Source: Bilabrum cf. latius (lineage: Eukaryota). From it: a stretch of DNA of 64,000 bases. Numbering within the stretch: the first letter of the stretch is position 1; each line of letters starts with the position of its first letter. Both the position numbers and the translations under genes were made by a program. The stretch is taken from assembly GCA_965178125.1 (NCBI GenBank), contig OZ237739.1, positions 124,001-188,000 of the forward strand, in the 5' to 3' direction. The notes beneath the pieces were generated by a model that saw nothing but the letters and a program-made list of their open reading frames with translations, searched no databases and was not told the DNA's origin. Below are positions 3,001 through 60,921 of the stretch, piece after piece.

Positions 3001-4642
3001 CTGCCTCGCTGCCCCCTGCTGCCTCTGCCAGCTAAAAGGCAATGCTGTCGCCTTCGTTCGCCAGCAGGAATGCTTTGGAGATCGTGATTGACGCGATTCT
3101 AGTCAGATCGAGGGCCATCTGCGCCTTGGTCCATCGCTTCATGACCCGCTTGATCTTGCCACTCTTCTTGTGCGCCGCGATCGCATCTGCCGCGGCCTGG
3201 GCATTGAATGCGAGACGGGCCAAGTTCTCTGTCGGGTCAAAGTAGTCGGACGGGCGCCGGCGTCGCTCAAATGTGTCAGCCCGAGCGGCCACCGCGATCT
3301 GAATCAGGGCCAGCACGTCGTTGACAGCCTCGGGGATCGCAACGGAGAGCGGGTCGAATGCCTTGCCCTTCTTCTACGCTTTCTTCGCGCCCTCCTTCAC
3401 GCTGGCGCGCATAACCTGGTGGGCCTCCCCGAATATGTCGTGCGCCGGCACCTGAACGCCTGCCTGGAACAGCAGCGCGTCGATGGACATGGGCGCCTCG
3501 ACGATGTCGCGCCCCAGAGCCGCTGCCTGCCCCGGACTCAGGAGGCCGAGCTCTGCCAGGGACACTGCGCCCAGGAGGCCGGTGCTGTCCTGGTCCTCTG
3601 GGAGAATCTTGGACCGCTCCCCGAACATGAGGCACTGCTGCATCGCCTGCACGGTCCCTCGGTGCTCGGGCCGCGCGTGCTTCACGTTCTTGGACCTGTC
3701 CCGACTGAGGCTGTGGCCCGGCTGGAGGAGCCCCTGGAAGGCCCGCTGCTTGGTCGTGTCCGTCCAGAACACCCCGCGGGTCGTCAGCTTGGCGCACCAC
3801 GAATCTACCCAGTTGGACGAGGCGCTCCGTCGCACGAAGGGCAAAAAGGCCGCCATGCCCCCGGACCGAAGCACGTTGCGCAGCGGCGCCACGTTGCCGG
3901 CGCGCATGGCGTGCTCCGCCAGCGGGATCGTGGCATTTGTCCTGCTCTCGTAGTCAAATCGCACGTGGGTTTTCTTTGCATCATCCGAGATCGCTGCCTG
4001 CAAGTCTTCGTCCGGGAGCAGCTTGGAGGCGCAGGTGCTCGAGGCCCGCAGTCGCTTCGTTGGAGCAGCGCCAGGTTCGTACTAGCACGCTGGAATCGCC
4101 GCAGACGCCAGAATAGCGGCTACTTGTCCGTGGAATAGCTCCTCTTTCGCGGCCTGGCGAATACCATTCACGATCGTCTGCCGCACAGCGTTTCGCCACG
4201 TTCCTGAAGATGCAACTGCAGTGCCTTGCCGAGCTTCAATCAAATCAGAAGCCATCAAGTCCGGTATGGGGGCCAAGAATGCCTGGGGACACATACTTAG
4301 CACTAAATCAGACGGTTTGGTGATGCCGTCGCCGAACTATCCGCTTTCTGAAGACTAGTTTGCAGCAGCGACCACGGCATGCTGAAGCGGCTAGCAGACC
4401 TTCTGGCTCTAGACGCGCTGCGCGTCACTCAAGCGCGCATAAAGAGACAACGGCACCTTTGATATCTACTGATGCTCCCCTGCACGCTGGTTCTATTTGT
4501 GGGTCTGAAGAAGTTTGGTCATTTGCTCGATCATCAATGTCACTGCATCGGTTCCGATAGACGCAGCGGTAGCAGCCGTATTTATGGCAAACGCATGAGA
4601 TGACTGCATACTTGATTGCGTCTGAAGCAGCATTCCTTCCAT
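1..4642 (-). CDS. Large hypothetical protein (>1,500 aa, 3'-truncated by the window edge), read with TAG=Gln
   Basis: ORF-track pieces ending at 4493, 4082, 3374, 3032, 1787, 863 and 524 are in one frame and separated only by TAG. There is no TAA/TGA in this frame from 4852 down to position 1. First in-frame ATG is at 4642; an upstream exon is possible. No domain recognised. Confidence 0.75.
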
Positions 4643-5530
4643 GGGCGTGCTCTTGTCGGCTTCTGACTGGCGTTGCTTGCTCTCAGAAGCAGTTGCACTT
4701 GCTGCCGACAGGCTGCGCACGTGCGTTTCATGGCTTATCCTCGGGAGTATGTCGCTGAAACTACCGGAGCTGGCTAACACTATAGCAAGAACTACAAGGC
4801 CCTGCGACGATAGTGATTTCTACGGCGAAACATTGTCTCGGCTGAGGGGCCGTCATCGGCTGTTACCACAAATAGAAAGGCCGCACGAATCCGGCGATTT
4901 CACCGATGCCTCCGAGTCATTCTGATTCACACTCGCACAAAGAGAAACAACAAGGGCAATGTATCGCATCAATCGCCTCGAATGTCTGCTACGCCTCTCA
5001 CGATGACTCCTGCTAGCACCCGCACCTTGCTGCTCGTGGCCGCCGCACGAAGCCAGCGGCTCGCAGCAGTCATGCTGGCCTCCTGCTGGCGGACCCAAGG
5101 TCGTGCAGTACCCCCCTAGGATATATGCAGACTTTGGAATCGATGCTTGGACTGCGGGCAGGCTGCTTGTGTTCCGATTCAATGCGCGCAGCTGGGTCGC
5201 ACGCGAAATGAGACTCTTGGGGTGCAGTCGCACGCTACAATAACTCGAGTGGCTAGGCCCCAGCTGCATCAAATCAATACATGAAGTCCAGTGGACTGCA
5301 TGCTGCACCGCTGCGTTGCTAGGAGACGCGATGACGCGGGTGTGTGATACCTGGAAGCTGGCTCGCCTGACCCTGCGTAGTCTAGCGTGCCAGTGGGCCA
5401 GCGGAGGGAACGGGTAGGTGTGGGTGGGCCGGCGGTGGGAACAGGAAGGTGTGAGTGGGGTTGAGTGGGGCATCGAGGCAAGTCAGGCTGAAGAGCTTTG
5501 GAGGCTGGGGTCACCCCACACCACCGGCAT

Positions 5531-8267: not shown

Positions 8268-8662
8268 TGGTTGATGCATCAATGGCGTACTTGAATCTAC
8301 ACGCTTGCTTGGGGTGCAAATGGCTCCCGCGGCTCCAGTCATTGCGCGAGGAAGTACGCATTGAGCGGCCTAATGCCCGCATGGGTATTGCAGATCATTG
8401 CAGCTCGCTCCTGTGTTCAGATCATGCGTAATGGTTAGGACAAGGCAGCAAAACGCAACTGGAAGTGCACTCGTCATGCCAGTTGGGTCACCGGCTCGAT
8501 GATGCCGAGCGACTTCCGAAAGTAGAACTTGACAAGCACGCGCGAGCAGTCCCGAGCATTATCGCTTCTCTGCATCACTGCGCGTAAAGGCTTCACCTTA
8601 TTTGAGTTCCCGCCTCCCCTGGCACCACAAAGCTCTACCAATTAGTCTGCATTCAGGCGTCG

Positions 8663-9838
8663 ATGTCAAATGCTAAACCAGCGCATAGTGGGCTAAATCA
8701 CTTGAATTGGCAAAGAACTGGCCTCTTTGCCGCTGGATTCTTGCTCGTTACCATCCTGTCATGCCCATTCTTGGGGCTCATGCAAGATGTGTCGGTCGCA
8801 TACACCAACGCGCTTGCACGGCTGCGAGGCACTGGAGCGGAGGGACGCTGGCAGGGCAATCAAACCGTACTGGACAGCGGCGTCACCATCGTGCTGCTGA
8901 ATTATAAAAGACCAGACAACATCAGGAGCATCGTTAAGGCATACCTTGGCATGCCAGAGACCCTGGTTCGCAGCGTGCTGATTTTCAACAACAACCCCAT
9001 GGACGACCTGTCTGCCCTGACGGACCCTGGGCGAGGAGGCAGCTCGAGAGTGACTGTGTTGGGCGCGTCTGAGAACGTGGGTATCGGCAATAATCGTTTC
9101 TTCGCGGCATCGCTGTCCAAGACGCGCGCGGTCGTGTCGCAGGATGACGACCTGCAGCTGTCGCAGCGTGGCCTGGAGCAGCTGCTCATGCGTTGGCAGC
9201 AGGAGCCGGACAGGGTGCACGGGACATTCTGCAGAGGACCTAGACCGGACCCAGACGCCCGAGCACCCGCTCTGCCCGAGGGAGCGACCGAGGAAGTGAG
9301 GAGGAGGAGCAGGCCTTTCAGGTATGCGTGGGGCGAGCAGTCTCTGGCTGAGGAACAAGTGGCCCGGCAGAGGGGGCGGGTGGAGGCGTTGCAACGACTG
9401 GCCGGGGACAGCAGCGGGGCCATGGTCGACGGAACGTACTGGACGGCGCCGCGCGATCCGCTGCGGGCCCCCGGCATGTCGGACGCATAGGACCGTGCGT
9501 CTGCGTGCCCTGTGCTGATCACCCGGATTGTTGCTTTCGACCGCACGCGGGCGTACCAGTACTTCCGTTGGGTGCTCGAGATGCAGGACACAGTTCCAAA
9601 GCAGAAGCCGTTTGGGCACGGGGAGGACCTGCTGCTGTCGCTGCTGTCGGTGCGGGAGTCCGGGGGCAAGCTGAACCGGGTGTGGAGGGATCTGGTGGCG
9701 CAGGATGTCGCGGAGTTGCCAAGTCTGGGAGTGGGCGTGTCGGCCGTGAACAACGACCATGTTGAGTTCAGGAGCATGTACATGCGGCTGGCGTGCAACC
9801 GACTGGGGCTGCCTTGCTGGGACTGGATCGAGGGGTGA
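8663..9838 (+). CDS. Glycosyltransferase family 64 (EXTL2-like) type II membrane protein, copy 1 (391 aa, one TAG=Gln at 9488)
   Basis: N-terminal TM helix; TIVLLNYKR, IFNNNP, NNRF, AVVSQDDDL (DxD), W.QEPDRVHG and GHGEDLLLS motifs. The C-terminal half (9512-9838) is in frame across the TAG. Confidence 0.8.
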
Positions 9839-10116
9839 GGGGCGAGCGTGGCTCTCTGGCAGCCAGATGCCAATGGTTACGGAACCGCCATCCTGTAATT
9901 TTGCTTGCCTGTCTCCGATACCAGATGGGACGTTGATCGGTACCGGAGTTCAACAAGTTGCGTGCAATTTGATTTTCTGCGACATGTTCGTTGGGGAAAC
10001 CACGCAAACGCGCAGCTTTGGCGGCAATACGAACACACACCGCGGGTAATTCTGGATTCTGCGTATATTTTGGGTTGTTGGCTAGAGTACAAAGGCACAC
10101 ATTGGTCGCGAAAGTG

Positions 10117-11292
10117 ATGCCATCGAATAGCAAACCAGAGCACAATTGGTGGGTTCAGTCTAATTGGCGAAGAACTGGCCTTTTTGCCGCTGGATTCTTG
10201 CTCGTTGTCATCCTGTCATGCCCATTCTTAGGGCTCATGCAAGATGTGTCGGTCGCGTTCTCCAGTACACTTGCCAGGCTGCGAGGGGCCGAAGTGGAGG
10301 GACGCTGGCAGGGCAATCAAACCGTGCTGGACAGCGGCGTCACCATCGTGCTGCTGAATTATAAAAGACCAGACAACATCAGGAGCATCGTCAAAGCATA
10401 CCTTGGCATGCCAGAGACCCTGGTTCGCAGCGTGCTGATTTTCAACAACAACCCCACGGACGACCTGTCTGCCCTGACGGACCCTGGGCGAGGAGGCAGC
10501 TCGAGAGTGACTGTGTTGGGCGCGTCTGAGAACGTTGGTATCGGCAATAATCGTTTCTTCGCGGCATCGCTGTCCAAGACGCGCGCGGTCGTGTCGCAGG
10601 ATGACGACCTGCAGCTGTCGCAGCGTGGCCTGGAGCAGCTGCTCATGCGTTGGCAGCAGGAGCCGGACAGGGTGCACGGGACTTTCTGCAGGGGTCCCAG
10701 GCTCGATCCCCACAGGAAGCCACCCGCTCTGCCCGAGGGAGCGACCGAGGAAGACCGGAAGAAGAATGTACCGATCAGGTATGCGTGGGAGCATCAGATG
10801 TCGAACGAGCAAATGGCCCGGCAGAGGGGGCGGGTGGAGGCTTTGCAACGACTGGCCGGGGACAGCGGCGGGGCCATGGTCGACGGAACGTACTGGACGG
10901 CGCCGCGCGATCCGCTGCGGGCCCCCGGCATGTCGGACGCATAGGACCGTGCGTCTGCGTGCCCTGTGCTGATCACCCGGATTGTTGCTTTCGACCGTAC
11001 GCGGGCGTACCAGTACTTCCGTTGGGTGCTTGAGATGCAGGACACAGTTCCAAAGCAGAAGCCGTTTGGGCATGGGGAGGACCTGCTGCTGTCGCTGCTG
11101 TCGGTGCGGGAGTCCGGGGGCAAGCTGAACCGGGTGTGGGAGGCGCTGCTCGAGACCGAGGTGACGGAGCTGCCCGACCTCGGGGTGGGCGTGTCGGCCG
11201 TGAACAAGGACCACGAGCAGTTCAGGAGCATGTTCATGCAGTTGGCGTGCAACCGACTGGGGCTGCCTTGCTGGGATTGGTTGTATGGCTGA
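10117..11292 (+). CDS. Glycosyltransferase family 64 (EXTL2-like), tandem copy 2 (391 aa, TAG=Gln at 10942)
   Basis: Near-identical paralog of 8663-9838 with the same length, the same motifs and TAG at the homologous codon. Confidence 0.8.
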
Positions 11293-11301
11293 GCCAGGGC
11301 T

Positions 11302-11456
11302 TGATTCAATGGCACCCCTACTGACGAATACAGAGCATCCATGTACAGTGATGTTTGGGCCGATAGTGGTATACTGATCGGATCAATTCCGAGTACGAGC
11401 TGAGCGAGACCAGCGCTCTCACTTAGGGGAATTCAGAAGAAGATAAAGGAAATAAT
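11302..11456 (+). repeat. Split direct repeat A1
   Basis: tgattcaatggcacccctac...gataaaggaaataat, repeated at 17821-17975. Confidence 0.95.
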
Positions 11457-13995
11457 GCTCAGCCAGCAGAGTGCGCAATGGAAGCAAAGCCGGGCGATCG
11501 TGGCGCGAATGACCACTCGTATGGCCCCAACGGTGAGGCGGAGGGTGAACGCTGTGGGTGGTGTTTTCGATGTGTTTCAAGGTATGGCTGTTGAACACAT
11601 GTCGAGCTTCTCGGAGCCTGTCGTACGCGAGGCTGTGAACATGCTAAACAAAGAAGGGGCAGATGCGCAGCGGGCTCTGTTGGGCAGCTGCGTACGCGGC
11701 CACACGCCGGTCGCTTCCCTGGGCGCAGGGGCTGCCGTTATGGGCGTGTTCAAACCGACCACGACGCCAGACGTGGAATCGGGCCTGCGTGGCGCTCTGG
11801 AAGTGGCAGCAGGGTTCTCAAAGGACGATCTGATGCCCGAGGACCATGGTGAGCTCTGGAAATGCCTGCAGCAACCACTACAGAGTGGTGTAACGCCACA
11901 GCAGGCAGCGTGGGCAGCACGTGCGGCCCTGTTCGGCTATGCCCGGGTGGCACCGTGGACGATCCCCTTCCTCGACGAAATGTTCGATGCTCTGTTGCCC
12001 AACATGCTGATCCATGCGATGCCGAAGCCAACATGCAGCAGTTCGTCGGCGAGCGCGGCGACGGGTGGAAACTCAGACCAAGATGCGACGGGCAGCAATG
12101 GGGTGCTCCCACTCTGGGGAGCACCGGTGATCCCGCTACCATCCGGGGCATCAACAACAGCACCATTCACGGGGTCAAGGCCTGAACGTGTAGCCGGGGG
12201 GCCGATGGGAGCGCACTCACTGGGCCGGGGCATCATGGACGGTGGCGGGTTTGGGTGGAAACTGCCTGCCCCAAGCGGGGGGGCCGGTGCAGGGGCGACT
12301 GCTACCTCAGGCCATCCGCTGAGCGAGCTGGGCCTCTTTGATTTTGGGGGCGGATTCAGCCATGGTGGAGTGACTGCGGCCGATGCTGGGGCGGGTGGCA
12401 AACCAGCGGGAGGTCCAACGGCAAGCCGCGGTGCCAGCGCGGTGTTTGGGGCGCAGGCGTCGATGGGCACCATCTCGGGCGCAACGCTGGGAAAAAGGGG
12501 GAGAGCGGAAGAGGTGGGGGAAGCACAAGCTCCCTGGGAGGCCATTGTGGCGGATTCGGAACGTCGCACCAAGGCGGCAAGGCGCGAGCAAGAGGTCGAG
12601 GGAGCATCCGCGGGAGCAGGAGAGGCGACCGCGAGTGACGCGATCGACAAGCGAATTCAACAGGCGGTTGCGGCCATGGCATCGGGTGAGCCCAATGGTA
12701 CGTTGTAGTTGCTCCGTGCCCTTGCGCTTGAGTTAAATGCCCGGCCCGAGCACTCCACCCAGGCGATTAAGTCGTCAGCCGGCGCCTGCAAGAAGTCACC
12801 ATACCAGGGCCAGGTCGGAGCAGACGATGGAGACGGCGCCAAGGAAGTGCATAATTCCATTCCCACGGCGAAGGGAGTTGACTCTTTGTTCTACGACACC
12901 GTACGGTCTTAGGAGGTGCTTCAATTTAGGGACAGTGCACGGTATTTGGCCGAACTCGGGGAGGAAGGCGAGAGAGCTAAGGACTTGGCCTCAGTGGCGC
13001 TGACGAGTGCGGACAAGGCAAAGATTTCGTTACTTCGGATTGAACGCCCCGCGCAGATAATGTTCGCTTCTATGGCGAGTGCGGCTGGTTTTCGCCGGGA
13101 GTCAGGATCTGGCCGCAGCTTTCATGTGGCACCGGTGCTGGAGGAGGCGGGTGATTTGCTCATGCCGGACGGGATCAGGCAATTTGCGAGTAAGTGCGGG
13201 TAGCACGTGTTGTCGGGAGTGGCAGAACTGGAACAAGGCAACATTTTTCGATTACCCACGATATTGACCAGATCGGTGTGTGGGGCGCTCGAGTGGGTCG
13301 TGGCAGGGAGCACGTCGTTGCTGAAGGTGGTTATCACACTTGCGACACTGCTGCACCAGGATAAGCATGCGGAAGCCAGGGCAGTAATGAGCAAGCTTCA
13401 CGAGGCGTTGGAGATTGCAGTGCGAAGAATGTTCTTGGGCTTAGGGATGGTCCTTCATGCGGCAGCAGTCCGCACGGCAGGTGGAGGCAACGGGGACACA
13501 GCCAATACGGGTCAGCATTTCGTGTTAGCAACTGCTCTGCGCATGATTTTGATACATAGGGTGGCACCAGTGGGGAGAATGGATACTCCTGCGGTGCTTC
13601 GACTGTGGTAGTTGCGGAGCGAGAACGAGACCCCGCTGCGGATGACGCAGACTCAGGTGGGGCCCACGTGGGAATTACTGGGACTGAATCCGGCAGGCAA
13701 CCATAGCGCTATGGCGTGGGAGGATGTGACAGCCGCGATAGACAAGTCAGCATTGGAGCGAGCGAAGCGGGTGGCAAAGGAGCATGGGGCCGCAGCTGGA
13801 GGAGCGGGGGCAGCGGCAAAACGGTAGTCAGCGAAGGCCAGCAGCAGCAGCAGCAGCAGCAGTAGCGCGAGTGCGGGTGGACAAGAGTCGCAGCAGGAGT
13901 CAGAGCGCCAAAAAGGGACGACATCGGGGCCCAAAACGTAGGCGGAGCACCGTACCTCCCCAAGACGAAGTGGCCGACTAGCGGGGAATGGGTGA
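11455..13995 (+). CDS. Retrotransposon ORF1, putative Gag-like (846 aa; TAG at 12706, 12910, 13201, 13609, 13825, 13939)
   Basis: ATG at the end of A1; one frame broken only by TAG until TGA at 13993. Gag assignment is positional only; no CCHC knuckle seen. Confidence 0.7.
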
Positions 13996-16387
13996 CGCGG
14001 CCCGAGCCAGGGGAAGGGCTGCAGTAGTGTAGGCATGTGCACTATCTTCGGAAGCAGCGCAAAAAATCCTGGCTCAGCAGAAGACTCCGACCCTACAGCG
14101 TGGTGAGCCGAGCCTGCGGACACTGGATGGGCGGTGCATTGTGACGGACATCATGGAACACGCGGACGAATTGTTGGACTAGGTTGCATCTGCAGGCCCC
14201 TCGAGACGATGGCACGAGGTGCAGATGGAAGCAGCCGGCTATTCTGTGGACAATGACGGTGATGCGGGAGCGGGGATGACTGGGGATGCGCCGTCAGCAT
14301 TGGGTGCGGACGGGATGTGGTAGGCTTGGGCACGATGCCTGGCAAAGCGGGACAAGATTGACTTGCGGTCATTCCCACCGGGCTAGGCACCATCATCTGC
14401 TTTGGACGTCTGGTATGGAACGTTGTCACACTGGGAGCGTAGGGGCGAACTGCAGCAGGGGGAGCGATGGGCAGCACGCTAGCCGTGTACGCTGTCACCT
14501 CGTGGAGCATGGCAGGCACATTTGGCTCGTTGTCGACGCTGCGGGGCGCGGGGCGCAGTGGAGCCCGATTGTGTAGCGGGCCGGGGGTTTGTTGGACTGG
14601 CACGACATGGGCTTCGGGCGGAGGCAGTCTTGAAGGTGTTGGGGGCGCAGCCGGTACGGGCTGACCCGAAGGACTTGCCGGCGGACGAGGAGGATGTAGT
14701 CCCGTTCGTGGAAGCAGCAGCGAGTGCAGGCAAGATTCGACCGGTGGAGGGCGCCGCGGTCTAGGTGACGCCTATGTTCGTTGCCAAGAGGACCGCAATC
14801 GAGGTACAGCAGCGGGAGGGTCAGACACCACGCTTGGTGCAGCGGGAGGACACGACTGGCAAGCAGCGCCTAGTCACGGATATGAAGCGCTCGGGCGCGA
14901 ACGAGGCATTTCTTGACTTGCGTTTCCGGTATGGTGATTTTGCTCGGCATTTAGCAGAGCGCGTGGGACGTGACAGGCACGAATGGGGGGCAGCCTTCGA
15001 TTTCAAGGCGGCATATCATAGTATAGCGATGGCACCGGGGCTGCAGCGATGGATGGCAGTTCGCGGAGTGGGTGGCAGCATGTTTTAGTTTGTGGTCTTG
15101 TCGTTTGGTTGCAGAATGGGCTGTTTTGTCGCATCAGTAGTGTTGGCAGAGTGTCTAGCGGGGGTGCGACTGCGCACCGCACATTGGGCTTTTGGGTACA
15201 TTGACGATGGCTTTCTGTCAGCACGTACGGAGGCCCGCACTATGTAGTTGTTGTGGTGTGCCGTGCTTGTAGCGCGGGGGATTGGCATGAGGATATAGCC
15301 TAGCAAACTTACCTTTCCAACATAGGTGATTGAGTTCCTTGGGCTAAAGATTACCCTGGGAGCCCACTTGAAGGTGACACTGCGCTCGGATCGATGGCCA
15401 CGGATCCACGCAGTGCCGAGGACCGTTGAGCGAATGCGAGCTTTCAACATGCTAGCAACGAGTGCGCTGGCGGTCAAGGCTGTGGAGAAACTGGCAGGAC
15501 AGTTGGGCGCGGCTGCGGCAGTAATCCCCCACGCTTCGCAGCACGTGTTTGCGATATACTAGGCGGCTGCAAAGGCTCGCAAAGGTGGTAGGCACATCTG
15601 GACGGCAGAGTTCAACGAGGAATTTGAGTGGTGGCTGACATGTAGGGACCGCGGTATCTTGACAGCGGCAGCAGCTGCACCGATATACCCGTTGCCGGAG
15701 GGGAGAGCATCCGTGTTTTGTGCTGACGCGTCAGCCCATGGGCTGGGTGCAATGTGGCGCCGAGGCAATGGTGATTCTGGCTTGATGCAAATGGGTTTCC
15801 ACGAGGACATGCAGTTACTATCCAGTACGGCACGCGAACTAGCATCACTACGAGCTTTTTTGTCAGGACCAGGCTAGTTGGCGAGGAGCCAGACTTGCCC
15901 AGAGGCGCTCTTCGTGCTGTCAGACAATCAAGCCCTGCCAAATTTGCTGCGGAAGGGCGGCTCGATGAAGGCTGGGTAGCGAGATGAGCTGCGAGAGATT
16001 GGAAGGCTGGCTGAGAACTTGGGATACGTTATCTTCCCCGTGTGGTAGAGGCGAAGTACACCGATCATGGTGGCATGCGATAGATTGAGCAGGGTGGAGG
16101 ACGGTGCTGGTCAACTGGTGTAGACGGCGGGGCAGCGCGTGGGCGAAACGGGGTTTGTCTCGGCGGCAAGGGCGACATCTGACTCAACTTTTCATGCACC
16201 ATTTCATCTTCGCAGGACCATTTGGGGAGCTGATCCCAGTGACTGGACGAGCAGGCTCAAGTGCTGCGGCACAACGGCGAGCAGCGGTGGCGGCGACTAG
16301 GACCCTGATGCTGTAGGAGAGTCAGCAGCTCGGCAAGGGAGCTCTGGACGCGCGCAGGCGGAATCTGACCATGCAGGCGGAACTTGA
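13988..16387 (+). CDS. Retrotransposon ORF2, reverse transcriptase plus RNase H (~800 aa; alternative ATG at 13784)
   Basis: RT motifs KQRLVTDM, FDFKAAYHSI, F*FVVLSFG, GYIDDG, PT*VIEFLG. RNase H motifs FCADAS..GLGA, STAREL, LSDNQ, ACDRLSR. About 16 in-frame TAG and no TAA/TGA until 16385. Confidence 0.92.
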
Positions 16388-17432
16388 GGTCGGGGATCCG
16401 GTGGAGGCCATGTGGGCTTTGCTGACGGAGTAGTGCGCCGCCGGGTTGAAGTATGCCACAGTGTTGCGATTGTTCCAAGCGCAAACGGCGTGGTTCAGGT
16501 CAGCGGAGTTCCCGCGTACCCCACTCGCAGACGTGGAGTACAGGCAGGTCAAACTGGCCCTGCTCGGCTACAAGCGTAGATGTGCCGGGGCGACGGATCC
16601 GGACGCGGTACGTGCCCTACGTGTCCTGGTGGACAACCCTGTAACGTTGCGAGCACTAGTGATGATGGCCTGGTAGCTGCAGGCAGAGTGGGATTCGATG
16701 TGGCAAGGCCCAGCTGCGCTGGCCCGTGCGGACTACAACTCAACACCAGCGGTTCTCGATACATTTATGTGCTGCTATGTGGGGACATTCTGTGGCTTGG
16801 CCCGGTGGCCAGATCTGGTGCATCTGGCAATAGGGGAGATAGAGTGGACTGCAGCGTCTGATGACAACGAGGTTGTTCCCGTGGCCCTGATTGGGTGGCA
16901 GCGGTACAAGTCGCGGGTGCTCGGCGGCAACCCCGAGCAGCGCCCGCCAGCGGTCATTCCATGCTTGCCGGATGGATTCGAGGAGTTGTGCCCGTATCGG
17001 TGGCTGAAGTGGTGGGTATCAGTTCGGTAGCCAACACAAGGGCAGCGCGGGGAAGTATTCGCCTCTCGAACACGGGCTGCGCACAGTGCCACGCTGCAGT
17101 GGATAACAGCGCAAGGGATTCCTGTGCACCGCAAGGGGGAGGGTGTGTACGCCTTCAAGAGTGCGGGAGTGTCAGCATTGCGCCAGACGGACCCAACCAA
17201 GGACGAGAAGTACGTGCACGGCCAGGCTGGGTGGTCTCTGCCCAACATGCCAGCGGTGTATGATCGTTACTCATTGATGGAAGCGGCAAGGGTTACGAGG
17301 AGTGGGATTCTTCGGGCTATGGTGGGAGCTGGCTCCATCCCAGAACTTCTGAAGATTTGGGAATCCCAACGCAGGGAGCTTCACCGGAGCCCAGTGAGCA
17401 GTGGTGGGGGTGAACGGGATTCAGGGCTCTAA
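16194..17432 (+). CDS. Retrotransposon ORF3, tyrosine recombinase (412 aa; TAG at 16314, 16431, 16674, 17028)
   Basis: GTFCGLARWPDL (Arg), RYKS (Lys), LCPYRWL, GVYAFKSAG (HxxR position), AGW....MPAVY (Trp, Tyr nucleophile). Overlaps ORF2 and ends in TAA. Confidence 0.85.
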
Positions 17433-17440
17433 CTGGGCCA

Positions 17441-17822
17441 GTGGGTGTTCCTTGCGGCGTTCGATGGGCGAACAGCCAAAAGGGGGGCCCAGTGTAGATC
17501 CCGTGGCCAGTGGCAGGTAGTCCCCATAGCGGCTTGAAAGGTCCGTGCCGCCTGCCCAGTGCCCGGGGAAGCACCAGCCAAAACCAAAGCGCCACGGAAG
17601 GAGGAGATTACGAGGAGCGGGTACTAGGTACGAGAGTGGAAGCTGAGGGCAGGACAAAGCGGCCAGCCGGGCCTAGGCGGCACGGAGACGGCCGTGCTAG
17701 CGACAGACGAGTGGGCGACGGTGGGTAGCGGCGCACGAGTGGCGCGTGGCGGGAGAGGGAGAGTGCTGGGGGAGCGAAGCATTGAGCGGTTGATCGACAG
17801 ATCCACATTACCAACCATCATG
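17441..17822 (+). repeat. Split direct repeat B1
   Basis: Repeated at 19259-19640 with one C/G difference (17664 vs 19482). Confidence 0.95.
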
Positions 17823-17975
17823 ATTCAATGGCACCCCTACTGACGAATACAGAGCATCCATGTACAGTGATGTTTGGGCCGATAGTGGTATACTGATCGG
17901 ATCAATTCCGAGTACGAGCTGAGCGAGACCAGCGCTCTCACTTAGGGGAATTCAGAAGAAGATAAAGGAAATAAT
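17821..17975 (+). repeat. Split direct repeat A2
   Basis: Copy of 11302-11456. Abuts B1 and shares the TG dinucleotide. Confidence 0.95.
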
Positions 17976-19258
17976 TTTTACTTTTATAGAATTGTTTCTT
18001 GTCTTGTTGGCCCCATTTCCTTCGGATATGGATGGGGCGGCATCGCGGCGGAGGCCGGGAGGTGAGGGGGGACCAGTAGTTGGCGGACAACAGAGGGGCC
18101 TACAGCTGAAGGGAGGGGTGCCAGGCGGATAAGGTTTACTCAGCGAGACAGGGCGTCTTAGGGGCGGGTAAGTGTGTGTGTGTCACTGCTGCCCGGTAGT
18201 GTGTGTAATATTCTCTTGGGAGGGGGGCGGAGGCAGACCGCTCCTCCTCCCTCCGCACTCAGTACCAGCATGAACCAGCCCTCTTTTCTGTTCATGTGGA
18301 CCCCCTGACAACGGGGGGACCACGTGGCACCCACGCAGGATGGCGGCGCAGATTCGGAGGGTACCAACACTCATACCTAGCTACCAACATTTAAGCGTTG
18401 CGGAGGGCAACGGAACGGGGCCAGGGAAGCTGCGTGCGTCTAGCCATCTAGAACACGTGGACGAACTGGTGGTGGCCTTTGCCACCATCCCATTTCACCA
18501 ACCAGATGAGGCTCCGTGGTCGCATCTGGTGCCGATGGCCACTGTTAGCAGGACCGTTGGTGGGTGGCTTGGGGGGCCAGGGACTTGGCTGAGTCAAGTA
18601 GGCGTGGGAGTAGGGGTGGGTGCGGTCAGTATGAGGTCCGTGCCTCATGTTGATCGCTGTAAATCCGGCTATAGGTCGGAAGCAACCCACCCTCCCGGTT
18701 GCAACAGTGGGGACGGGTGTGAGGTGGCCACGCGTGAGGTGGTCATGAGACTGGGAGCAGAGGTGTGGTCCGTGCCGTAAAATCCCCCATGTGGAGCACC
18801 TCTGTTTTTCTGGAAGCACAAAGAACCGCGTTGCGGGCCCAGGAAACTTCTGTCCTTTGGATGGCTCCGTGGCCGAAGGGGGACAGAGTGACCTGCACAG
18901 CCGAGAGGAGAGCCTGAATCTCGGATCGACCCTGGGACAGTCGCACCGGCGACACCCACCGAGAGAGCGAGGCGAGATCCTGCACAGCGTACGCTGCAGT
19001 GGAGGACCACTGTGGTGCTGCAAGAGGCACGGCAACGTGCGGACAGCAGCCGGACCCCGTATCCTCACAGAGGGTAAGGCAATGGGAGCCTGAATAGGAG
19101 CGGACCGGGTGACGACTGTGCTGGGGCTGCGGTGAGCATACAGGACCGTGTCGAGCGTGGTGGGCTGGGCGGGATGTGCGAGCGGTGATGCCCTAACTCG
19201 ATCGAGTTCAAGATTTTTTCTTCTTTTTGCGTGGTGGCGTCCCCTAGGTCGGGGCGGC

Positions 19259-19640
19259 GTGGGTGTTCCTTGCGGCGTTCGATGGGCGAACAGCCAAAAG
19301 GGGGGCCCAGTGTAGATCCCGTGGCCAGTGGCAGGTAGTCCCCATAGCGGCTTGAAAGGTCCGTGCCGCCTGCCCAGTGCCCGGGGAAGCACCAGCCAAA
19401 ACCAAAGCGCCACGGAAGGAGGAGATTACGAGGAGCGGGTACTAGGTACGAGAGTGGAAGCTGAGGGCAGGACAAAGCGGCGAGCCGGGCCTAGGCGGCA
19501 CGGAGACGGCCGTGCTAGCGACAGACGAGTGGGCGACGGTGGGTAGCGGCGCACGAGTGGCGCGTGGCGGGAGAGGGAGAGTGCTGGGGGAGCGAAGCAT
19601 TGAGCGGTTGATCGACAGATCCACATTACCAACCATCATG
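19259..19640 (+). repeat. Split direct repeat B2
   Basis: Copy of 17441-17822 at the right end of the element. Confidence 0.95.
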
Positions 19641-19759: not shown

Positions 19760-21182
19760 ATGCCCACTAAAACGATGAATATGACGCCGCAAGAGGCGCA
19801 AGCCTACCTCAAAGCACGAGGAGGGCCCGACATTTCAATTTCGTACGGTAACTCATCAGGTAGCGCCGCCGTTCCTGGTTTTGGAGTAGCAGCTTCTTCT
19901 GTGCCTGGATTTGGATCAGATGGGTCATTCAGTAGTGCCCCGGCTCCGGCACCAGCGCCAGCTCCGGCACCGGCTGCCGCGACTGCAGCTGCTCCGGGCG
20001 GTTTGTACGGAGGCTCAGCACCATCATACGGCGGGTCCACCCCTTCGTATGGCGGATCTGCGCCATCTTATGGTGGAGGAGCTCCATCGTATGGTAGCGC
20101 TGCGCCATCTTATGGCGGATCTGGTGGCGCTGCTCCGTCGTACGGAGGCGGCGCCGCTTCCTACGGCAGCGGAGGCGCAGCGCCTCCTCCAGCGCAATAC
20201 GGTGGTGCGGGGTCTGGTTCCGGAGGAGATTACTATGGCCAAGCACCGGGCGGTTACGGGCAGCCTCATGAATATTCGGCCCCGGCTCCCGCCCCGGCCC
20301 CCGCCCCAGCACCCACTCCGGCCCCTGCGACCTCCGACGTGGACGCACTCTTTGCCGCTGTGGACACGGACAACTCGGGCCAGATCGACTCACGGGAGCT
20401 GCAGGCCGCCCTCTCACACGGGGGCTACTCCCGGTTTAGCCCCCGCTGCACGAACCTTCTCATCAGGATCTTCGACACGTCGGGGAGCGGAACCGTGGGA
20501 AGGTCAGACTTCACCCAGCTGTGGAAGTACCTGCAGGAGTGGTCGGCCAGCTTCAAGCAGTTCGACAGGAATGGGGACGGTGAGTGCATCGCATTATTGT
20601 GCAGTGGAGGTTGTGCTTTGGACTGGCATGCGGCAGCGTACAGCATTCACAGGCCACCCAGAATCGCAGTGCCCGATGTGCAGCCCCATTCGTTCCCTCG
20701 TTGCCCCATCCTACTCCCGTACACCGCAGGCTCCATCACCTTTGCCGAATTCTCGGACTCGTTGGCCAGGGCGGGGTACAGACTGAGCGCCGCCACTGTG
20801 GGCCGCATCTTCTCCAACTACGACGAGGACAAGGCAGGCACGCTTTCCTTTGACGAGTTCGTGCAGGCCAACGCGGAGATTTCCATCATGACCTCGGCAT
20901 TCCGTACCCATGACACGTGAGACATATAGCCGTTTCTGCTGCCGTGTTTGCTGTGCTACTTACGAGGTGACTGGCCTGAGCTCCTCCGTGTCTTTAGGTG
21001 TGCCTGTCGCCTGGCGCCAGAGGCAGCGAGCGAGAGGTTGCGTGCCCCGTAATGATGTGCTTGCTACTCGAATACCATTTCACCAATGACCAATCCTTCT
21101 TCGCAGTGGCATGCGAGGCGTGATCACCATAAACTATGAGCAGTTCCTGCAGCTCATCATGGGCCTACCGCTTAGGGACTGA
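19760..21182 (+). CDS. Penta-EF-hand Ca2+-binding protein (peflin/ALG-2-like) with long Gly/Pro/Tyr/Ala-rich N-terminus (exons 19760-20579, 20730-20916, 21107-21182)
   Basis: EF hands DTDNSGQIDSREL, DTSGSGTV, DRNGD|GSITFAEF, DEDKAGTLSFDEF and HD|TGMRGVITINYEQFL, preceded by APSYGG repeats. GTGAG/CAG introns; TGA stop. Start could be 19760, 19775 or 19781. Confidence 0.88.
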
Positions 21183-22006: not shown

Positions 22007-25000
22007 ATGCTGCTGCTCCTGCTGCTGCTTGCTTCCATAAGTTACGTTGAACCAACCTTAGATACATGTGAAATGCAACTGTGGGGCCTATTACGGTCAA
22101 GACTTGATGATCAAGGTGCGGAGCTTGCCCGAGGTATTCATGTGTCCGCCAGTGCTCTTGACAGCCAAGCTTGTGAACACTTCATTTCGATCAACTCGAA
22201 CATGCACTCAAATTAGGTGAGTTTATATCTTGCGGGTTATCTGTGTGCGTTTATGCATTCACGGATTCATTGACGCGTACTTTGTAGTGCTCCGTGGCAA
22301 CCCTCGCAGACCTTGATCCGAGTACCATACTCTGCCGTTCTGGCAGTTGACAAGAACAATCCGATTGGGCCAATTGCAGAAAAACATAGAATTGCATAGG
22401 ACTGGTCTCTCGCGCTGATGATATTAGAAGAAAGGAATCTAGGCGAATCGTCGAGGCACGCTCGGTACCTAGGTTGGCTGGCCACTGACTAGAGTAAGCG
22501 CATCGGGGCGTGCTCTCCCGACACCACCTCTGCAGCAGCAGCAGTGGCACCGTAGACATCTTCCCTGGCGCCCGTACTTGCTTCTTTGGATCGACTAGAC
22601 GGCGAGCTGCACACCCATGCAGACCATGGCGAGCTGCAGCAAGCCGCGGGGCGTGTCGTGGGCGCCCTGTCCGTGACCCCCATGCATGCGATCTGCTGGA
22701 CGCCATCGCAGCTGTCCATGGTGCGGGGATCCAAGGCGGCACAAACCGCCGTCACTGCTGTAGTGGACTTTCTCCAGTTTGCGGCGAGCTCCGAATCGAT
22801 CGCCGAAGAGGCGGGCCTGTCGCCAGGGACCCTTGAAGCGTGCAAGCACGCGGCAGCGATCGCAAAGGAACTACTTGCGGTTGACGATGCCGATAGATAC
22901 GAAACGGCCATGCAAGCGCTCGAACAGATGCAGGAAGAGACAGACGGTTAGGGCTCGCGCGCCGCCCTTGTTCGGTGGGCCTACGCCACTGTGCACACGA
23001 GGGCCCTGGAGCTGAGTGAGCTAGGGGAGGATGCCACGGTGCTGCGTGGGGAGCCGCGTGCAAAACAGGCCAGGATCAATGGGCCAGAGAGCACTGACGC
23101 GCCAACACGGCTTGTGTTGGCCCCTCTGGCAGACTTGCTGCTGGGTGCTGGGGCGGTGGTAGGCGCCAGGTAGGTGCCGGTCAGTGCCGCTTTGTCTGTT
23201 TCGACGCGCGCTGCGCCCGCGCCTAGCGAGGAAGATGGCGGCTAGGATGCAGAAGATTCGAGTTATTTCATTGAGGTGCGGGCCGCTGGTCGCATCGCAG
23301 CGGCAGTTGGCGTTCCTGTCGTAGCAAGCCACGGCCAGTGGGCTAGCAACAGCGAGCTGCTTGCGACCACTGGCGCATCGCTGGAGGACAGCCCCCACGA
23401 AGCGCTGGACGTATACATGGAGGCACCATCGACGGACATGGAGCGCCGCAGGATGCAATCAGCATAGTTGAATAGGCGGCAGATGCTGCATAGGCTGCTG
23501 CAGGACGTGCGCGCGGTGCGGCAGCACCATGATTCAGGCACGCTGGCGCTGGAAGGAGCCTCGGCGCTTGGTGCGCAGGGTGCCCACCTCGAGGCCAGTG
23601 TTCTGCGCGTTCTTGCCAAAGGCATCGGGGCCGGCGACAGCTTGTCAGGCACGGGATCTGGATCTCGACCGGAGCTGCGCCAGCTCCTGCAGCACGAGCT
23701 CCGTGTACCGTCCTTCTGCCGATCTTGGAGCGCAGGGCATCCAGGCGGCGAGTCAGGCGCGTACTCCATTCGCAGAGACGACCCCGTACCCGTAGAGCTA
23801 TTGAATGCGGCCCGTATAGCATTCCTGGACTCGGAGGCGCTGGCTCACGAAGGCCTCGCCGTGCTGCTGGTGCGGCAGCAGGTGCTGCTGAGCGAGGCGG
23901 GCGAGCTCGGACTGGTCGCGATGGAGCCGCAGCACCTGGCGCAGGGGCCGCTCGCGATCGCCCGATTCATGAGTACTGAGGCGTACGCTGCGGCTCTTGA
24001 GATGGTGCAAGACACGGGTGCCAAGCTGGGGGCGCCTGGCATCGCTGTCGGGGTGGCTGCCGTGCTGCATCGAGTGCCGCTGGCTCGCGTGGCTGAGCTG
24101 GCTGCGTCGAGCGATACAGTCCAGGATTTCATCCGAGCCATCCACGGCGATGTCGGCCCCTGCCTGCGACCCGCACCGCTGGCCGTGTCTGCGAGCACTG
24201 AGGAGATGGCCTCGCGGCAGCTCCTCGCCGCACTGAGGGGCCTCGAGCAGCAGTATGCCGTGCATCTGCAGACTAGTGTGCCGGCCACGGAACTTTTGCA
24301 TCTGCACCCCGAGGCTGGGCTCTCTGCCAGCGATGAGGATCGCTTGGACGCAGGTGCCATGCATGAGCTGCGGGCCGCCTCGCACGATCTTGCGAGGCAC
24401 CTGCACCTCCTAGAGGAAGTGAGGGACATTGCAAGCGGATCCATGCACCACCATGTCCTTCAAGCCGTCGCCCAGCCTCCAAAGCAGCTGCACCAGTTGC
24501 ACTAGGTGCATGGATCGGGGCGGAGGCAGAGGGCTGCAGCCGCTCCGGCGAAACATTCGGGCCCCGCACCAGCTGACTACTTCGAGTATCACGCCGTCCG
24601 GGTCTTGCTGTCCGAAGTGACGGTGCTGGAGCGCAGCATGCGCGCGACCAGCACGATGCACGCGCTCGCCGAGAGCAGGCTGGAAGCGGTGGAGGCGCTT
24701 GATCGGGAGTTGCTCAACCGGGTGTAGCGTACGGTACTGCGGGCCATGGAAGAGCAAGCCGCGCAGCCTCAGGAGGATCAAGGTGCCTCGCGCGAGGGTG
24801 AGCACGACGCGAGGCGAGCGTAGACAGGGCACCATAGAGCTTCAGACGCGGGTGCAGTTGGACAGGGAGGTGCAGAGACGTTGGAGGTGCTGCCTGACGG
24901 GAGCGTGCGAGAGGTGACGGCGCAACGGGGTCCGCGTGGCGACAGTGGGCAATCGGACGGCAGGTCGGTCCAGCCACGGAACGATGATAATTCCAGGCCG

Positions 25001-25075
25001 GACACGAGGCAGGACGATGCCAGGCCTCGCCGCAGCATAGGCAGGCGGAGATTCAGAAGCGACCGATTCGGATGA
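22007..25075 (+). CDS. SET-domain (SETD3/Rubisco-LSMT-like) protein with degenerate active site and N-terminal hydrophobic signal (exons 22007-22216, 22310-25075; ~990 aa)
   Basis: Single frame broken only by TAG. LSMT-like motifs LIRVP, LALMILEE..LGESS....YL, WTPSQLSMVRGS, WAYATVHTRAL, LVLAPLADLL and SNSELL. TGA at 25073. Confidence 0.65.
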
Positions 25076-25248: not shown

Positions 25249-25298
25249 TCATCCAGTCGCTGGACACTCCAGCAGCAGAGCTGTAGCAGGCTTGTCAT

Positions 25299-25330
<32 letters not shown>

Positions 25331-26979
25331 GCAGCTGTGGCTTCGCTTCCCTTGGCGCTGGGAGCAGCGCCAGGGCTAGCTGCACCATCGTCCACACTGC
25401 AGAGAGCCTCGATCGCTGCTGCGGCGAACACTTCCTGCAGTCCAATCTCGTACGCTCGAATTGGGACCAGCCTCGTCTCAGCTGTGCCGCTAGCTGTCGG
25501 CCTGCCCGTCGCATGTTCTGCCCCTGCACTGTCCTAGCATCCAATGTCAGCAGAAGAGCTGCTCTCATGTTTATCTGCAGCAGCACCGTCGGCCAGCAAT
25601 CTTTTTGCCGCAGCTGCAGTCCCAGCAATGACCCCAGCATCTGCCGCGCTGCACACTGCACCCAGCACAGTCTCCACAGTGTATCCCCCCGGGTCATTCA
25701 AGTTCACCGCCACTTCCCATCGCCCGCGCCCATGCGGGAGCGCCATACTCTCGCATCGGGGAACACCACCGCCCCGCTCGCTCGCAGCCCGCGCGATGCG
25801 CCTGCACACTGCGGGCAGTCGGCGGCGAGCACCAGCACCAGCACCAGCACCGGATGCGGACTACGAAGCTGCCCCAGAAATCGCCCCTACGGATACAGAT
25901 GCAGCCCCTTTCCCCGGCCCTGCATCGCGCGCACCAGCACCTTCCTAGGGAGCATATGCCTTGCTTTGCCAGCCCTGCGGCGCGTCGCCACGTTTTTCTA
26001 CTCCCGTTGTGGCCCGGCCGTCCCACACGTCCGCGTCCGCGAACTCGATGTTGAGGTTCGTGATCAGGGGACACGCGCCCACCACCACTGTGGGCTAACG
26101 GGCGTCTCGGCCTGCTTCTGAATCGATAGCTCTCCCCTTAATGGGGGGTTTGCCATGCTATCCACCGGCAGACGACGGCACGGTCCCATCCTGAAAGTAC
26201 CCGCGCATGCGTCGCCTAACCGACACGAGCGATTCACCGGTCGTGCTCGCCCACCCGTACATCTCACATCGACCCAGCGGAACTTGTCCAGAGCTTGCAT
26301 TGTTTGTCATTAATGCACTGGAGCCCCGCCCCTCGATGGCCTCGGCAATGAACCTCGCGATGGCTGCGCCCTCGCGCTTGACCACGCTCGCCTCTCGCTC
26401 CCCGATGGCATCCAGCCAGGACCACTGCGAGCTGGCGCTCGGCAAGGCGGGGCTATCTTTGCTTCTGTCGATCGCTGTTTCTATGTCGATCGTTCTAGCA
26501 AGATGCTATTTGGCGAGATTCCATGCTGTTCTGGCCGGTCCAGTTGCCTCAGGCGTGGATGACGTGCGTGCCGTCAAACGCACAGGCTGAACAGATATGT
26601 GATCAAGAAACGACACAGCTGGATGTACGGAGTCTTCTTTGGGACTAGAAATTGTGCGGGTGCTACTTGGCGCTATGCTGTAGCTCTCAAGTGAACGCTC
26701 AGCTCGGAGCACCTGATCAACTCCCTGTTCGGGCAAGGCAGGCTCCGGCCCCAGAATCTCGCGACTCAGCGACGCTGCTGCAGAGCGTATCGAAACAGAA
26801 TCTAGAGCGCCAATTGTGATTGACGTCCTGGCATAGACTGGATCTCTGAAGCTGTACAGCAAAGCTGCAGATTCCGTGGTGTTGCAACAGCGCATGGCAG
26901 AGCGGCGTATTCGTGCTGCCGTCCGAGCTCCACCGACAGACACATATAAATGTACCAGCCATCCAATTCGTAGTGTCAT
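25249..26979 (-). CDS. Formiminotransferase-domain protein (FTCD N-terminal subdomain / FTCDNL1-like; 576 aa)
   Basis: LLYSFRDPVYARTSITI, HPAVSFLDHISVQP, MYGWAS...LVSVRR...YF, VVGACPLITNLNI, RRIARAASERGGG...MALPH...EVAVNL. One frame across several TAGs; TGA at 25249. Confidence 0.8.
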
Positions 26980-27091
26980 TTCACGATAGACATGTTTGTT
27001 ATCTGCGCGGCGAAAGCCCCAGTGCAGCTGCATGCGATGCACCTGCACGAAACCCGAAAATGATCACTTAAACGTACATTCACGCAGTTAT

Positions 27092-27989: not shown

Positions 27990-28383
27990 CACCCTCGGTT
28001 CTTCTCCTCTTGGCCACAGGGCCCTCAGGATGCCCCCCCACGCCCACCCTCGGTTCTTCTCCTCTTGGCCACAGGGCCCTCAGGATGCCCCCCCACGCCC
28101 ACCCTCGGTTCTTCTCCTCTTGGCCACAGGGCCCTCAGGATGCCCCCCCACGCCAACCCTCGGTTCTTCTCCTCTTGGCCACAGGGCCCTCAGGATGCCC
28201 CCCCACGCCCACCCTCGGTTCTTCTCCTCTTGGCCACAGGGCCCTCAGGATGCCCCCCCACGCCCACCCTCGGTTCTTCTCCTCTTGGCCACAGGGCCCT
28301 CAGGATGCCCCCCCACGCCCACCCTCGGTTCTTCTCCTCTTGGCCACAGGGCCCTCAGGATGCCCCCCCACGCCAACCCTCGG
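27990..28383. repeat. 55-bp minisatellite, ~7.1 near-identical copies
   Basis: Unit caccctcggttcttctcctcttggccacagggccctcaggatgcccccccacgcc; ACCCTCGG recurs at 27991, 28046, 28101, 28156, 28211, 28266, 28321 and 28376. No unique spacers. Confidence 0.95.
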
Positions 28384-30489: not shown

Positions 30490-30670
30490 CTCATTGTCGT
30501 GCGCTTCTCATGCTTTATACCGATCTGAATCGTTACAACTTGCGTCTACTTTTTCGTGCTCGGTTCTGTCGACCATCGTACAGTGCAGTGCACCTTCCTC
30601 TGCGGGAACGCGGGGAAGCTTTTCACGTCCGACCAAGGGTCTGTTAGTGGATTTCACACGAAATCGTGCG

Positions 30671-33600: not shown

Positions 33601-34537
33601 CTTTGCCCTGGGGAGTTTCCTCGACACGGGGGCGGCGACGGCGGCGGCGATGGCAGGGAGGCAGGCCGCGGCGGACCGCCGTCTTAGGGCAGAGACAGGT
33701 GCGTCAGGCAGCGGCAGCAGCAGCGGAAATCTGCTCGGCATGCTGTCAGGGGCTGGTGCTGGCGCCTCCGAGTCGGACCCACTGTCCGAGTCAGGCCCGG
33801 TCACCAACGCACACGGGCATTCCCAGGAGGCTGGGTGGGCGGGGCTGCTGCGGAGGAGGGCAAGGGGGAGGGCGGCCCGAGCTGCAAGGAGACGGGCGGC
33901 GGAGTGGGCGGTGTGGAGGGACGACCCGTCCGACCTGGCAGTGGCAGAGGCAGAGGCAGAGGCAGAGGCACCAACGGGCGGGAGCGGGAGCAGGAGCGGG
34001 AGGGGGTCCATGGTGCCGGTGGCCGGGCCTGCAGATGTGCCCGGCAGTGGAGTCGGGGTGGTGACTCGGCGCGGGGAAGCCGCATCTGACGCGGTGACCA
34101 AGGCAACCGGGGGCAGGAGGCAGGGGTCTGTGGGGAACACAGGGGGGTTAGAGGAGGAATCGGGCGGGGCAGCCAGGAGGTCTAGCAAGGGGGGTAGTGC
34201 GGGTGTGCGCTACCTGGGCTGTGGCAAGGGGAACGGGAAGGATTCGGACGATTCGGAGGAACCTTCGTCAGACTCGGACTCGCCTTTGTCGGGCAGCGGG
34301 GCGGGGTCAGACCCGGCCTTTGACGCGGCCCTGCGGTTCAGGAACGGGTTCCCTGGTCACTCGTCACTGCGGCCACACCTTGCTCGCGTGCGCTGGGAGT
34401 ATCACTGGCGCCGCCTGCTCCGGTCCATCCTGTTCGTGGGGGTGGAGGCTGTGGCATTCGCCGCCCCGGTTGTGGCTCACGTGGTGCTGTTGCTGCACGC
34501 GCCAGTGAGAGGTGACTTTGGCTTGCTTGATGAGTGA
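30671..34537 (+). CDS. Multi-pass membrane protein, Frag1/DRAM/Sfk1 (or DUF998)-like, with very large insertions (1,288 aa)
   Basis: About six hydrophobic segments; SSISEYG after TM1, LHTLGA in TM4, Glu in the last TM (VGVEAVAF). In frame across TAGs at 30689, 31346, 31484 and 31691; TGA stop. Confidence 0.6.

Positions 34538-39667: not shown

Positions 39668-39702
<35 letters not shown>

Positions 39703-60886: not shown

Positions 60887-60921
<35 letters not shown>

Follow-up and report, generated by a model that had tools for sequence, protein, structure and literature searches.

The 64,000-nucleotide stretch of Bilabrum cf. latius DNA considered here (contig OZ237739.1 of GenBank assembly GCA_965178125.1, positions 124,001 to 188,000 of the forward strand; hereafter the window, numbered from its first letter) contains an element that is read, with a probability of about 0.75, as a DIRS-order retrotransposon with split direct repeats and a Ngaro-like layout, present as one complete and recent copy in a GC-rich eukaryote in which UAG encodes glutamine (Gln). 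The element is real, it belongs to the DIRS order, and its kind is already known; it is probably active. An earlier reading made from the letters alone (the sequence-only reading) had described it as an intact and young Ngaro-type element written in the code of its host. The evidence concerns the paired repeats, the three open reading frames (ORFs), the residues that face TAG codons in the element and in its host, and the enzyme encoded by ORF2.

Repeats and open reading frames

The two A repeats are identical over their whole length, and the two B repeats differ by a single mismatch (C at 17664, G at 19482), so that one difference is found among 537 paired repeat bases (Table 1). The sequence-only reading had given the same degrees of identity, and they hold on recomputation. 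In the model published for split-repeat elements, as set out in the accessible text of the source, A1 equals A2 and B1 equals B2 at the time of insertion (PMC6681497); the near-identity of the pairs fits a recent insertion, as had been proposed. The final two bases of A1 are the opening two bases of the ATG of ORF1, and B1 and A2 overlap by two bases (TG), the end of B1 being the start of A2. Both outer junctions and the internal B1A2 junction share this TG only, and there is no target-site duplication. Repeat B is not present at the 5' end of the element, and no pair of inverted repeats of at least 40 nt occurs between 10000 and 21000.

From ORF1 to ORF2, and again from ORF2 to ORF3, the frame changes by +1, and these neighbours overlap by 212 nt and 194 nt, respectively. 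All three ORFs are open only when TAG is taken as sense: read with the standard code, ORF1 is reduced to pieces of at most 417 amino acids (aa), and the largest pieces left of ORF2 and ORF3 have about 104-110 aa. The reading frames of the three ORFs contain 27 TAG, 0 TAA and 0 TGA in 2,125 codons, as against 35 TAG, 14 TAA and 82 TGA in the off frames of the same stretches, where TAG makes up 27% of the stop triplets. Chance would yield TAG at every one of these 27 sites with a probability of about 3e-16. Likewise, the longest TAG-permissive ORF, at 885 codons, is longer than that of any of 300 mononucleotide shuffles (mean 236, maximum 553). The description of the ORFs as complete with TAG as Gln and broken under the standard code is thus upheld.

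No match to ORF1 was found in Pfam, NCBIfam, PHROGs or PDB. The overlap between ORF1 and ORF2 includes a (CAG)9 repeat (13839-13866), read as poly-Ser in ORF1 and as poly-Ala in ORF2, and this repeat has short matches further along the window (about 25305-25341 and about 60888-60918). Among the long ORFs of the window, ORF3 alone has TAA as its terminator; with TAA as a further sense codon, it would extend by 35 codons into B1, to a TGA at 17535-17537.

Table 1. Coordinates of the element, its parts and the two flanking genes (positions in the window).
Feature	Position	Strand	Description
Whole element	11302-19640	+	8,339 bp; order A1-ORF1-ORF2-ORF3-B1A2-[1,283 bp]-B2
Repeat A1	11302-11456	+	155 bp, 46% GC; 5' end of the element
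ORF1	11455-13995	+	846 aa, 6 in-frame TAG; Gag-like by position only
ORF2	13784-16387	+	867 aa, 17 in-frame TAG; reverse transcriptase and RNase H
ORF3	16194-17432	+	412 aa, 4 in-frame TAG, TAA end; in the place expected for a tyrosine recombinase, identity unproven
Repeat B1	17441-17822	+	382 bp; 381/382 bases the same as in B2
Repeat A2	17821-17975	+	155 bp; adjoins B1, forming the internal B-A junction
Spacer X	17976-19258	+	1,283 bp, 60% GC; unique sequence between A2 and B2
Repeat B2	19259-19640	+	382 bp; 3' end of the element
GT64-type glycosyltransferase gene (left flank)	9973-11292	+	Pfam Glyco_transf_64, E 1.4e-10
EF-hand protein gene (right flank)	19760-20920	+	Host gene

TAG as a glutamine codon in the element and its relatives

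Homologues of ORF2 show Gln where the element has TAG. In BLAST alignments, 86 of 130 homologues have Gln opposite TAG514, which belongs to a P-x-Q-x-x-x-F-L-G motif, and 40 of 132 have it opposite TAG435. At TAG505, Gln is found in all three relatives above 35% identity (3/3), and the protein P0012, which is 78% identical, has Gln at both TAG732 and TAG755. When the TAGs were masked and the residues in the nine usable TAG columns were scored, the best residue was Gln (summed BLOSUM62 of 1.4, the next being Glu with -2.0); the same column method names the correct residue for six control codon classes. The Gln fraction amounts to 21% in TAG columns (154/734), 14% in CAG/CAA columns (110/776) and 3.3% elsewhere (1,207/36,376). 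At none of the TAG columns of the BLAST alignments is Trp among the commoner residues, and Tyr is minor only (5/132 at TAG435).

The closest database relatives of ORF2 and ORF3 are short fragments only, of 32-242 aa. These fragment proteins (P0004-P0017, P0028, P0044 and P0176-P0179) fall into at least five divergent sublineages (37-60% identity), which suggests a family that has diversified in TAG-sense genomes, and those at 95-99% identity show that near-identical copies are present elsewhere in public data. Twenty-one fragments were examined for the position at which they end. Two end at the ORF's own end; among the 19 others, 10 end at a TAG of this copy, 2 at one of its CAG/CAA codons and 7 elsewhere. 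Leaving aside two 100%-identical fragments, which may come from this very copy, the counts are 8, 2 and 7 (n=17), so that 10 of the 17 diverged fragments (38-96% identity) end exactly at TAG or Gln codons of this copy, TAG sites being just 21 of the 1,279 codons in the test. P0004 and P0010 (42% identity) are among the fragments that stop at TAG593 and TAG505, where other relatives carry Gln. The terminators of the fragments would themselves be TAG. Since fragments of relatives stop at the TAG sites of this copy, the pattern fits a family that may have resided long in TAG-sense genomes and whose proteins would be fragmented by standard-code gene callers. Regarding the conservation of TAG positions and their interchange with other Gln codons, which the sequence-only reading had proposed as a check, both the fragment ends and the Gln columns favour old, maintained sense TAGs.

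The code of the host and the density of TAG

The host uses TAG in the same way. Its dynein heavy chain, of the cytoplasmic type, is encoded by one ORF (35030-55060; 6,676 codons from stop to stop) with the full dynein Pfam domain set, 19 in-frame TAG and no other stop. In an alignment with 22 homologues, in which TAG positions were masked with X, Gln stands opposite TAG3110, within the first AAA domain, in 16/22 homologues and opposite TAG4114 in 4/18, where it is the commonest residue, while the remaining TAGs lie in lineage-specific inserts. Two dynein TAGs are situated within a nine-codon run of Gln, and several more adjoin Gln. TAG thus occurs both at conserved Gln and within a poly-Gln run, and is therefore a Gln codon of the host; together with the Gln columns of ORF2, this supports the assignment made earlier for host and element alike.

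Over 11 host ORFs, 76 in-frame TAG are found in 15,421 codons, and all of these ORFs except the EF-hand gene carry TAG. The complete ones all end in TGA (10/10) and an in-frame TAA is needed by none. Because composition alone gives TGA about 85% of TGA+TAA, this uniformity is not significant (P ~0.2). No tRNA gene occurs in the 64-kb window. The nuclear code of Iotanema spirale, as described in the accessible text of two sources, likewise has UAG as Gln, with UAA kept as a stop and UAG making up about 8% of Gln codons (PMC5304391, PMC9161772). The likeness extends to an in-frame UAG that faces Gln and to its standing as a minor Gln codon, here 6% in dynein and 11% over the 11 host ORFs. That a resident element is written in the code of its host is expected and unsurprising in itself, and the host code is the more unusual object in the window.

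The sequence-only reading had taken the density of TAG in the element (about 26 in ~2,060 codons, against 18 in ~6,660 for dynein) as a sign of long adaptation to this code. The recounts come close to these figures (27 in 2,125 and 19 in 6,676), but the interpretation is not borne out. TAG represents 25% of the Gln codons of the element (27/108), 35% of those of ORF2 and 6% of those of dynein, while its share over the 11 host ORFs is 11% (76/706), with a range of 0-35%. Among host ORFs, this share drops as the GC content at third codon positions (GC3) rises (linear r = -0.68, p = 0.02; Spearman -0.49, p = 0.13). ORF1 and ORF3 lie on the host GC3 line and ORF2 lies above it, yet within the host range: in the low-GC3 host ORFs at 28300-30507 and 25249-27063, TAG makes up 29-35% of Gln codons. 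The TAG share thus follows GC3, and host ORFs reach values like those of the element, so that the difference from dynein is one of composition and does not constitute evidence of adaptation.

Reverse transcriptase and RNase H encoded by ORF2

ORF2 matches the Pfam family RVT_1 (E 2.1e-10, aa 397-523), and its domains are placed at about aa 340-530 for the reverse transcriptase (RT) and about aa 640-775 for RNase H, with no assignment for its N-terminal ~330 aa. Homologues are numerous, with 335 proteins at E <=0.001 in an exhaustive HMMER search. A domain scan of 79 sequences, namely 78 full-length relatives and ORF2 itself, retrieved RVT_1 in 76, RT_RNaseH in 19, RVT_3 in 13, RT_RNaseH_2 in 12 and a Dam methyltransferase domain in 10, and neither an integrase (rve) nor a protease is among the 18 Pfam families listed for these sequences. 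The catalytic residues of RT (D406, D474 and D475, the last two in Y-I-D474-D475) and of RNase H (D648, E685, D714 and D766) are all kept, in columns that are at least 95% conserved. Pfam gave no direct RNase H match on aa 620-820 of ORF2. In the AlphaFold model of ORF2, built on the alignment from which these columns are taken, the block-mean predicted local distance difference test (pLDDT) is mostly 80-97 over aa ~300-770. With this model, Foldseek retrieves the RTs of cauliflower mosaic virus, foamy virus, Moloney murine leukaemia virus, Ty3 and human immunodeficiency virus 1 (HIV-1) at E 1.8e-17 and below, and about 600 columns are aligned with HIV-1 RT chains of 538-560 residues, which is the length of the p66 subunit, RNase H included. 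Conserved residues and predicted fold together identify ORF2 as an RT with RNase H in which every catalytic residue is kept.

According to the accessible text of one source, a Dam methyltransferase domain marks the pol proteins of DIRS and PAT elements (PMC3783388). None is found in ORF2 with Pfam, and no match to Dam, rve or RVP is obtained in any ORF of the element or of its spacer. Trees were built with FastTree (81 rows) and with IQ-TREE in quick mode (77 rows, two long branches and two duplicates having been dropped); they are unrooted and include no labelled Ngaro or VIPER references. In both, ORF2 and five close fragments are on the Dam-free side of a split (FastTree local support 100; Shimodaira-Hasegawa-like approximate likelihood ratio test 99 in IQ-TREE quick), and the five relatives with Dam at E <=1e-5 are all across that split from ORF2. 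A search for near-length homologues with ORF2 gave 0 matches among 7,999 scored candidates, and neither ORF2 relatives nor the 30-mer of the B-A junction were found in the prokaryotic genome contigs scanned.

Affiliation of the element and alternative readings

The element can be compared with the Ngaro elements of Cafeteria burkhardae (PMC8547959) and of Xenopus and fungi (PMC9210276, PMC3783388), as these are described in the text available from each source. It shares with them the A1-[ORFs]-B1-A2-B2 order, three overlapping ORFs with RT and RNase H in the second, near-identical repeat pairs, and the lack of a methyltransferase, a protease and a DDE integrase; the Cafeteria hosts are, moreover, GC-rich like the host here (PMC8547959). 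Cafeteria was itself considered as the host, on account of ~70% GC and its published Ngaros, but the annotation of its nuclear genome makes no mention of a variant code. It differs from them by the gap between A2 and B2, and all of its ORFs require TAG as Gln. The Cafeteria Ngaros measure about 6 kb (6-7 kb) versus 8.3 kb here, and their recombinases are found by PF00589 and have His-x-x-Arg, neither of which applies to ORF3 (PMC8547959, accessible text). With DIRS-like and PAT-like elements, the element has in common an RT and RNase H of one broad group, that of the Dam-bearing sequences in the scan above. Unlike DIRS-like elements of the DIRS1 type, it has no inverted terminal repeats and no internal complementary region and, unlike PAT-like elements, it is not arranged as A1B1-[ORFs]-A2B2 and its ORF2 is devoid of Dam. 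The Ngaro-type label of the sequence-only reading rests on the repeat order and the missing methyltransferase, and is weakened by an ORF3 that is not recognised as a tyrosine recombinase and by the fact that VIPER-like elements have the same order.

Several findings weigh against a Ngaro-like element of the DIRS order. The B1A2B2 layout, in the accessible text of three sources, comes with no mention of a spacer such as the one of 1,283 bp that parts A2 from B2 here (PMC8547959, PMC3783388, PMC9210276). The 2-bp TG identity at the junctions has a chance of 1 in 16 and is weak evidence. With regard to ORF3, no tyrosine-recombinase model matches it in Pfam or PHROGs (E <=10) or in NCBIfam (E <=1), and no solved recombinase was matched among PDB sequences. 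Its alignments with Cre and with lambda integrase (Int) receive hhalign probabilities of 0.6% and 0.9%, and its AlphaFold model, built from 5 rows, has a mean pLDDT of 34 and is unusable. Finally, as judged by eye, the place of His-x-x-Arg is occupied by Tyr319-x-x-Lys322.

A placement outside the Ngaro superfamily, in a VIPER/TATE-like or unnamed split-repeat lineage of the DIRS order, is a tentative alternative of some weight. The VIPER/TATE elements, in the text available from PMC6681497, have a three-ORF plan, some copies with 100% identical repeats and the identical A1 ... B1, A2, B2 order, and Ngaro-like is for this reason not separable from VIPER-like. That PF00589 misses ORF3 and yet detects the recombinases of the Cafeteria Ngaros (PMC8547959, accessible text) points in the same direction, as does the fact that all ORF2 relatives above 35% identity are unnamed fragments. 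On the other hand, VIPER-like elements are reported from kinetoplastids only in the literature as far as available (PMC6681497), whereas the window has no kinetoplastid signal and the best dynein matches are fungal and stramenopile; this is a comparison of layouts and hosts, not of sequences. The repeat order and the missing methyltransferase also fit Ngaro equally.

The spacer X may belong regularly to the element, as a module, or may be left from a composite in which a non-autonomous partner took part. In the latter case, an autonomous A-ORFs-B unit would be joined head to tail with a non-autonomous A-X-B unit bearing the same repeats, either by integration of one circle into the B-A junction of the other or by recombination between copies. 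Such a composite is rather unlikely. It would account for an X without counterpart in the B1A2B2 layout of the literature, as far as the available texts describe it, and for the absence of coding or RNA signal in X. Indeed, X has several TAA/TGA stops per frame, with a longest open run of 168 codons on the + strand and 288 codons on the - strand; its 7 ORFs are without Pfam match, no Rfam match is obtained at E 0.1 or better, and its only tandem repeat is a 2-copy 12-nt one. By contrast, a single difference in 537 repeat bases fits one insertion event, even though a composite circle would look alike, and neither a solo A-X-B unit nor a further copy of the element occurs within the window.

The identification of ORF3 as a tyrosine recombinase is unproven. 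Besides the profile, fold and sequence tests described above, which are all negative or unusable, ORF3 has a single hit in PHROGs, to a family of unknown function (E 0.087), and no match to phage records by tblastn. Smith-Waterman scores against shuffles give z = -0.32 and 0.56, but the Cre-lambda Int control gives only 0.29, hence the test is powerless. The negative tests, together with the missing His-x-x-Arg at its expected place, are what would speak for an ORF3 that is not a recombinase, integration being then ensured by another agent or the element being non-autonomous for this step. Such a possibility is judged improbable. ORF3 occupies the recombinase slot of DIRS-order elements, and Pfam finds a DDE integrase nowhere in the element. 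In a manual and non-significant alignment with Cre and lambda Int, read with the numbering of the Cre catalytic residues, ORF3 displays by eye an Arg box (G-L-A-R204-W-P-D-L), Lys239, Trp347 and Tyr356. Its Trp and Tyr are 9 residues apart, as in Cre, and the distance from motif to Trp is 28 versus 26 in Cre. P0177, the only diverged relative of ORF3 (57-58% identity over 195 aa), conserves the candidate motifs and keeps F-K-S-A at the Tyr319-x-x-Lys322 site; the substitution of His-x-x-Arg is therefore conserved in the lineage and does not reflect decay.

As for a decayed standard-code retrotransposon, a pseudogene whose TAGs would be nonsense mutations, the standard code does break every ORF, but this reading is barely tenable in view of the exclusive use of TAG among in-frame stops, the TAGs of host genes at conserved Gln and inside poly-Gln, the Gln-enriched TAG columns of ORF2, the near-identical repeats and the intact catalytic residues.

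Insertion site and other features of the window

A1 starts 9 bp past the TGA of the GT64-type gene, so that the element probably displaced the 3' untranslated region of that gene, and 120 bp separate the end of B2 from the first ATG of the EF-hand gene. The GT64-type gene is the second of two tandem paralogues (8606-9838 and 9973-11292) that share 82% DNA identity up to the stop codon, each with one in-frame TAG at a shared aligned position. No paralogous empty site is found downstream of the tandem duplicate, the similarity stopping at the stop codon.

The GC content of the window steps from 57-64% in 1-34000 to 70-73% across the dynein gene (36000-54000). The dynein ORF includes many low-complexity inserts. 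It has no ATG before codon 234, although homologues can be aligned further upstream (TAG115 faces Gln in 2/2), so translation may in truth start at a codon other than ATG or in an exon lying upstream. Long TAG-bearing ORFs without Pfam match (604-1,617 aa) are located at 2-4852 (-), 22274-25075 (+), 25249-27063 (-), 28300-30507 (-) and 30290-34537 (+).

Proposed mechanism and implications

If the element follows the published model of the Ngaro, PAT and VIPER group, its full-length RNA would start in A1 and end in B2, and a host tRNA decoding UAG would permit the translation of ORF1, ORF2 and ORF3. RT and RNase H would then copy the RNA, the internal B1A2 serving as the template that joins the ends of the complementary DNA into a circle with a B-A junction. 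Recombination of this junction with a genomic site by the ORF3 product would complete the cycle, without target-site duplication. As every ORF needs UAG as sense, the proteins of the element could be made only in a UAG-sense host, which would act as a barrier to horizontal transfer into standard-code hosts, as the sequence-only reading had suggested.

In ciliates and other hosts with reassigned stops, resident mobile elements are written in the variant code of the host, the known cases being DNA transposons and non-LTR (long terminal repeat) elements. In the literature searched, which was incomplete, no tyrosine-recombinase retrotransposon is reported from a nuclear code with a reassigned stop. 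The element offers a worked example of a mobile element expressible only under a reassigned stop codon. Since its close relatives are found only as fragments that often end at TAG sites, such elements will be under-counted and mislabelled when repeats and genes are annotated in these genomes, unless the code is set first.

It can also be hypothesized, with considerable doubt, that the element represents an old and distinct split-repeat lineage that has diversified entirely within UAG-sense hosts, with a strongly diverged Tyr-x-x-Lys recombinase and the non-coding X as a regular module. If this were true, some TAG codons would have been conserved down to about 40% protein identity, and the family would stand as a new branch within the DIRS order, with the genetic code of the hosts setting the limits of its spread. 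Whether or not this holds, conserved TAG positions provide a means of dating the family, and hence the code change, in the host lineage, and this probably active copy could serve as a tool and as a marker in a protist group about which little is known.

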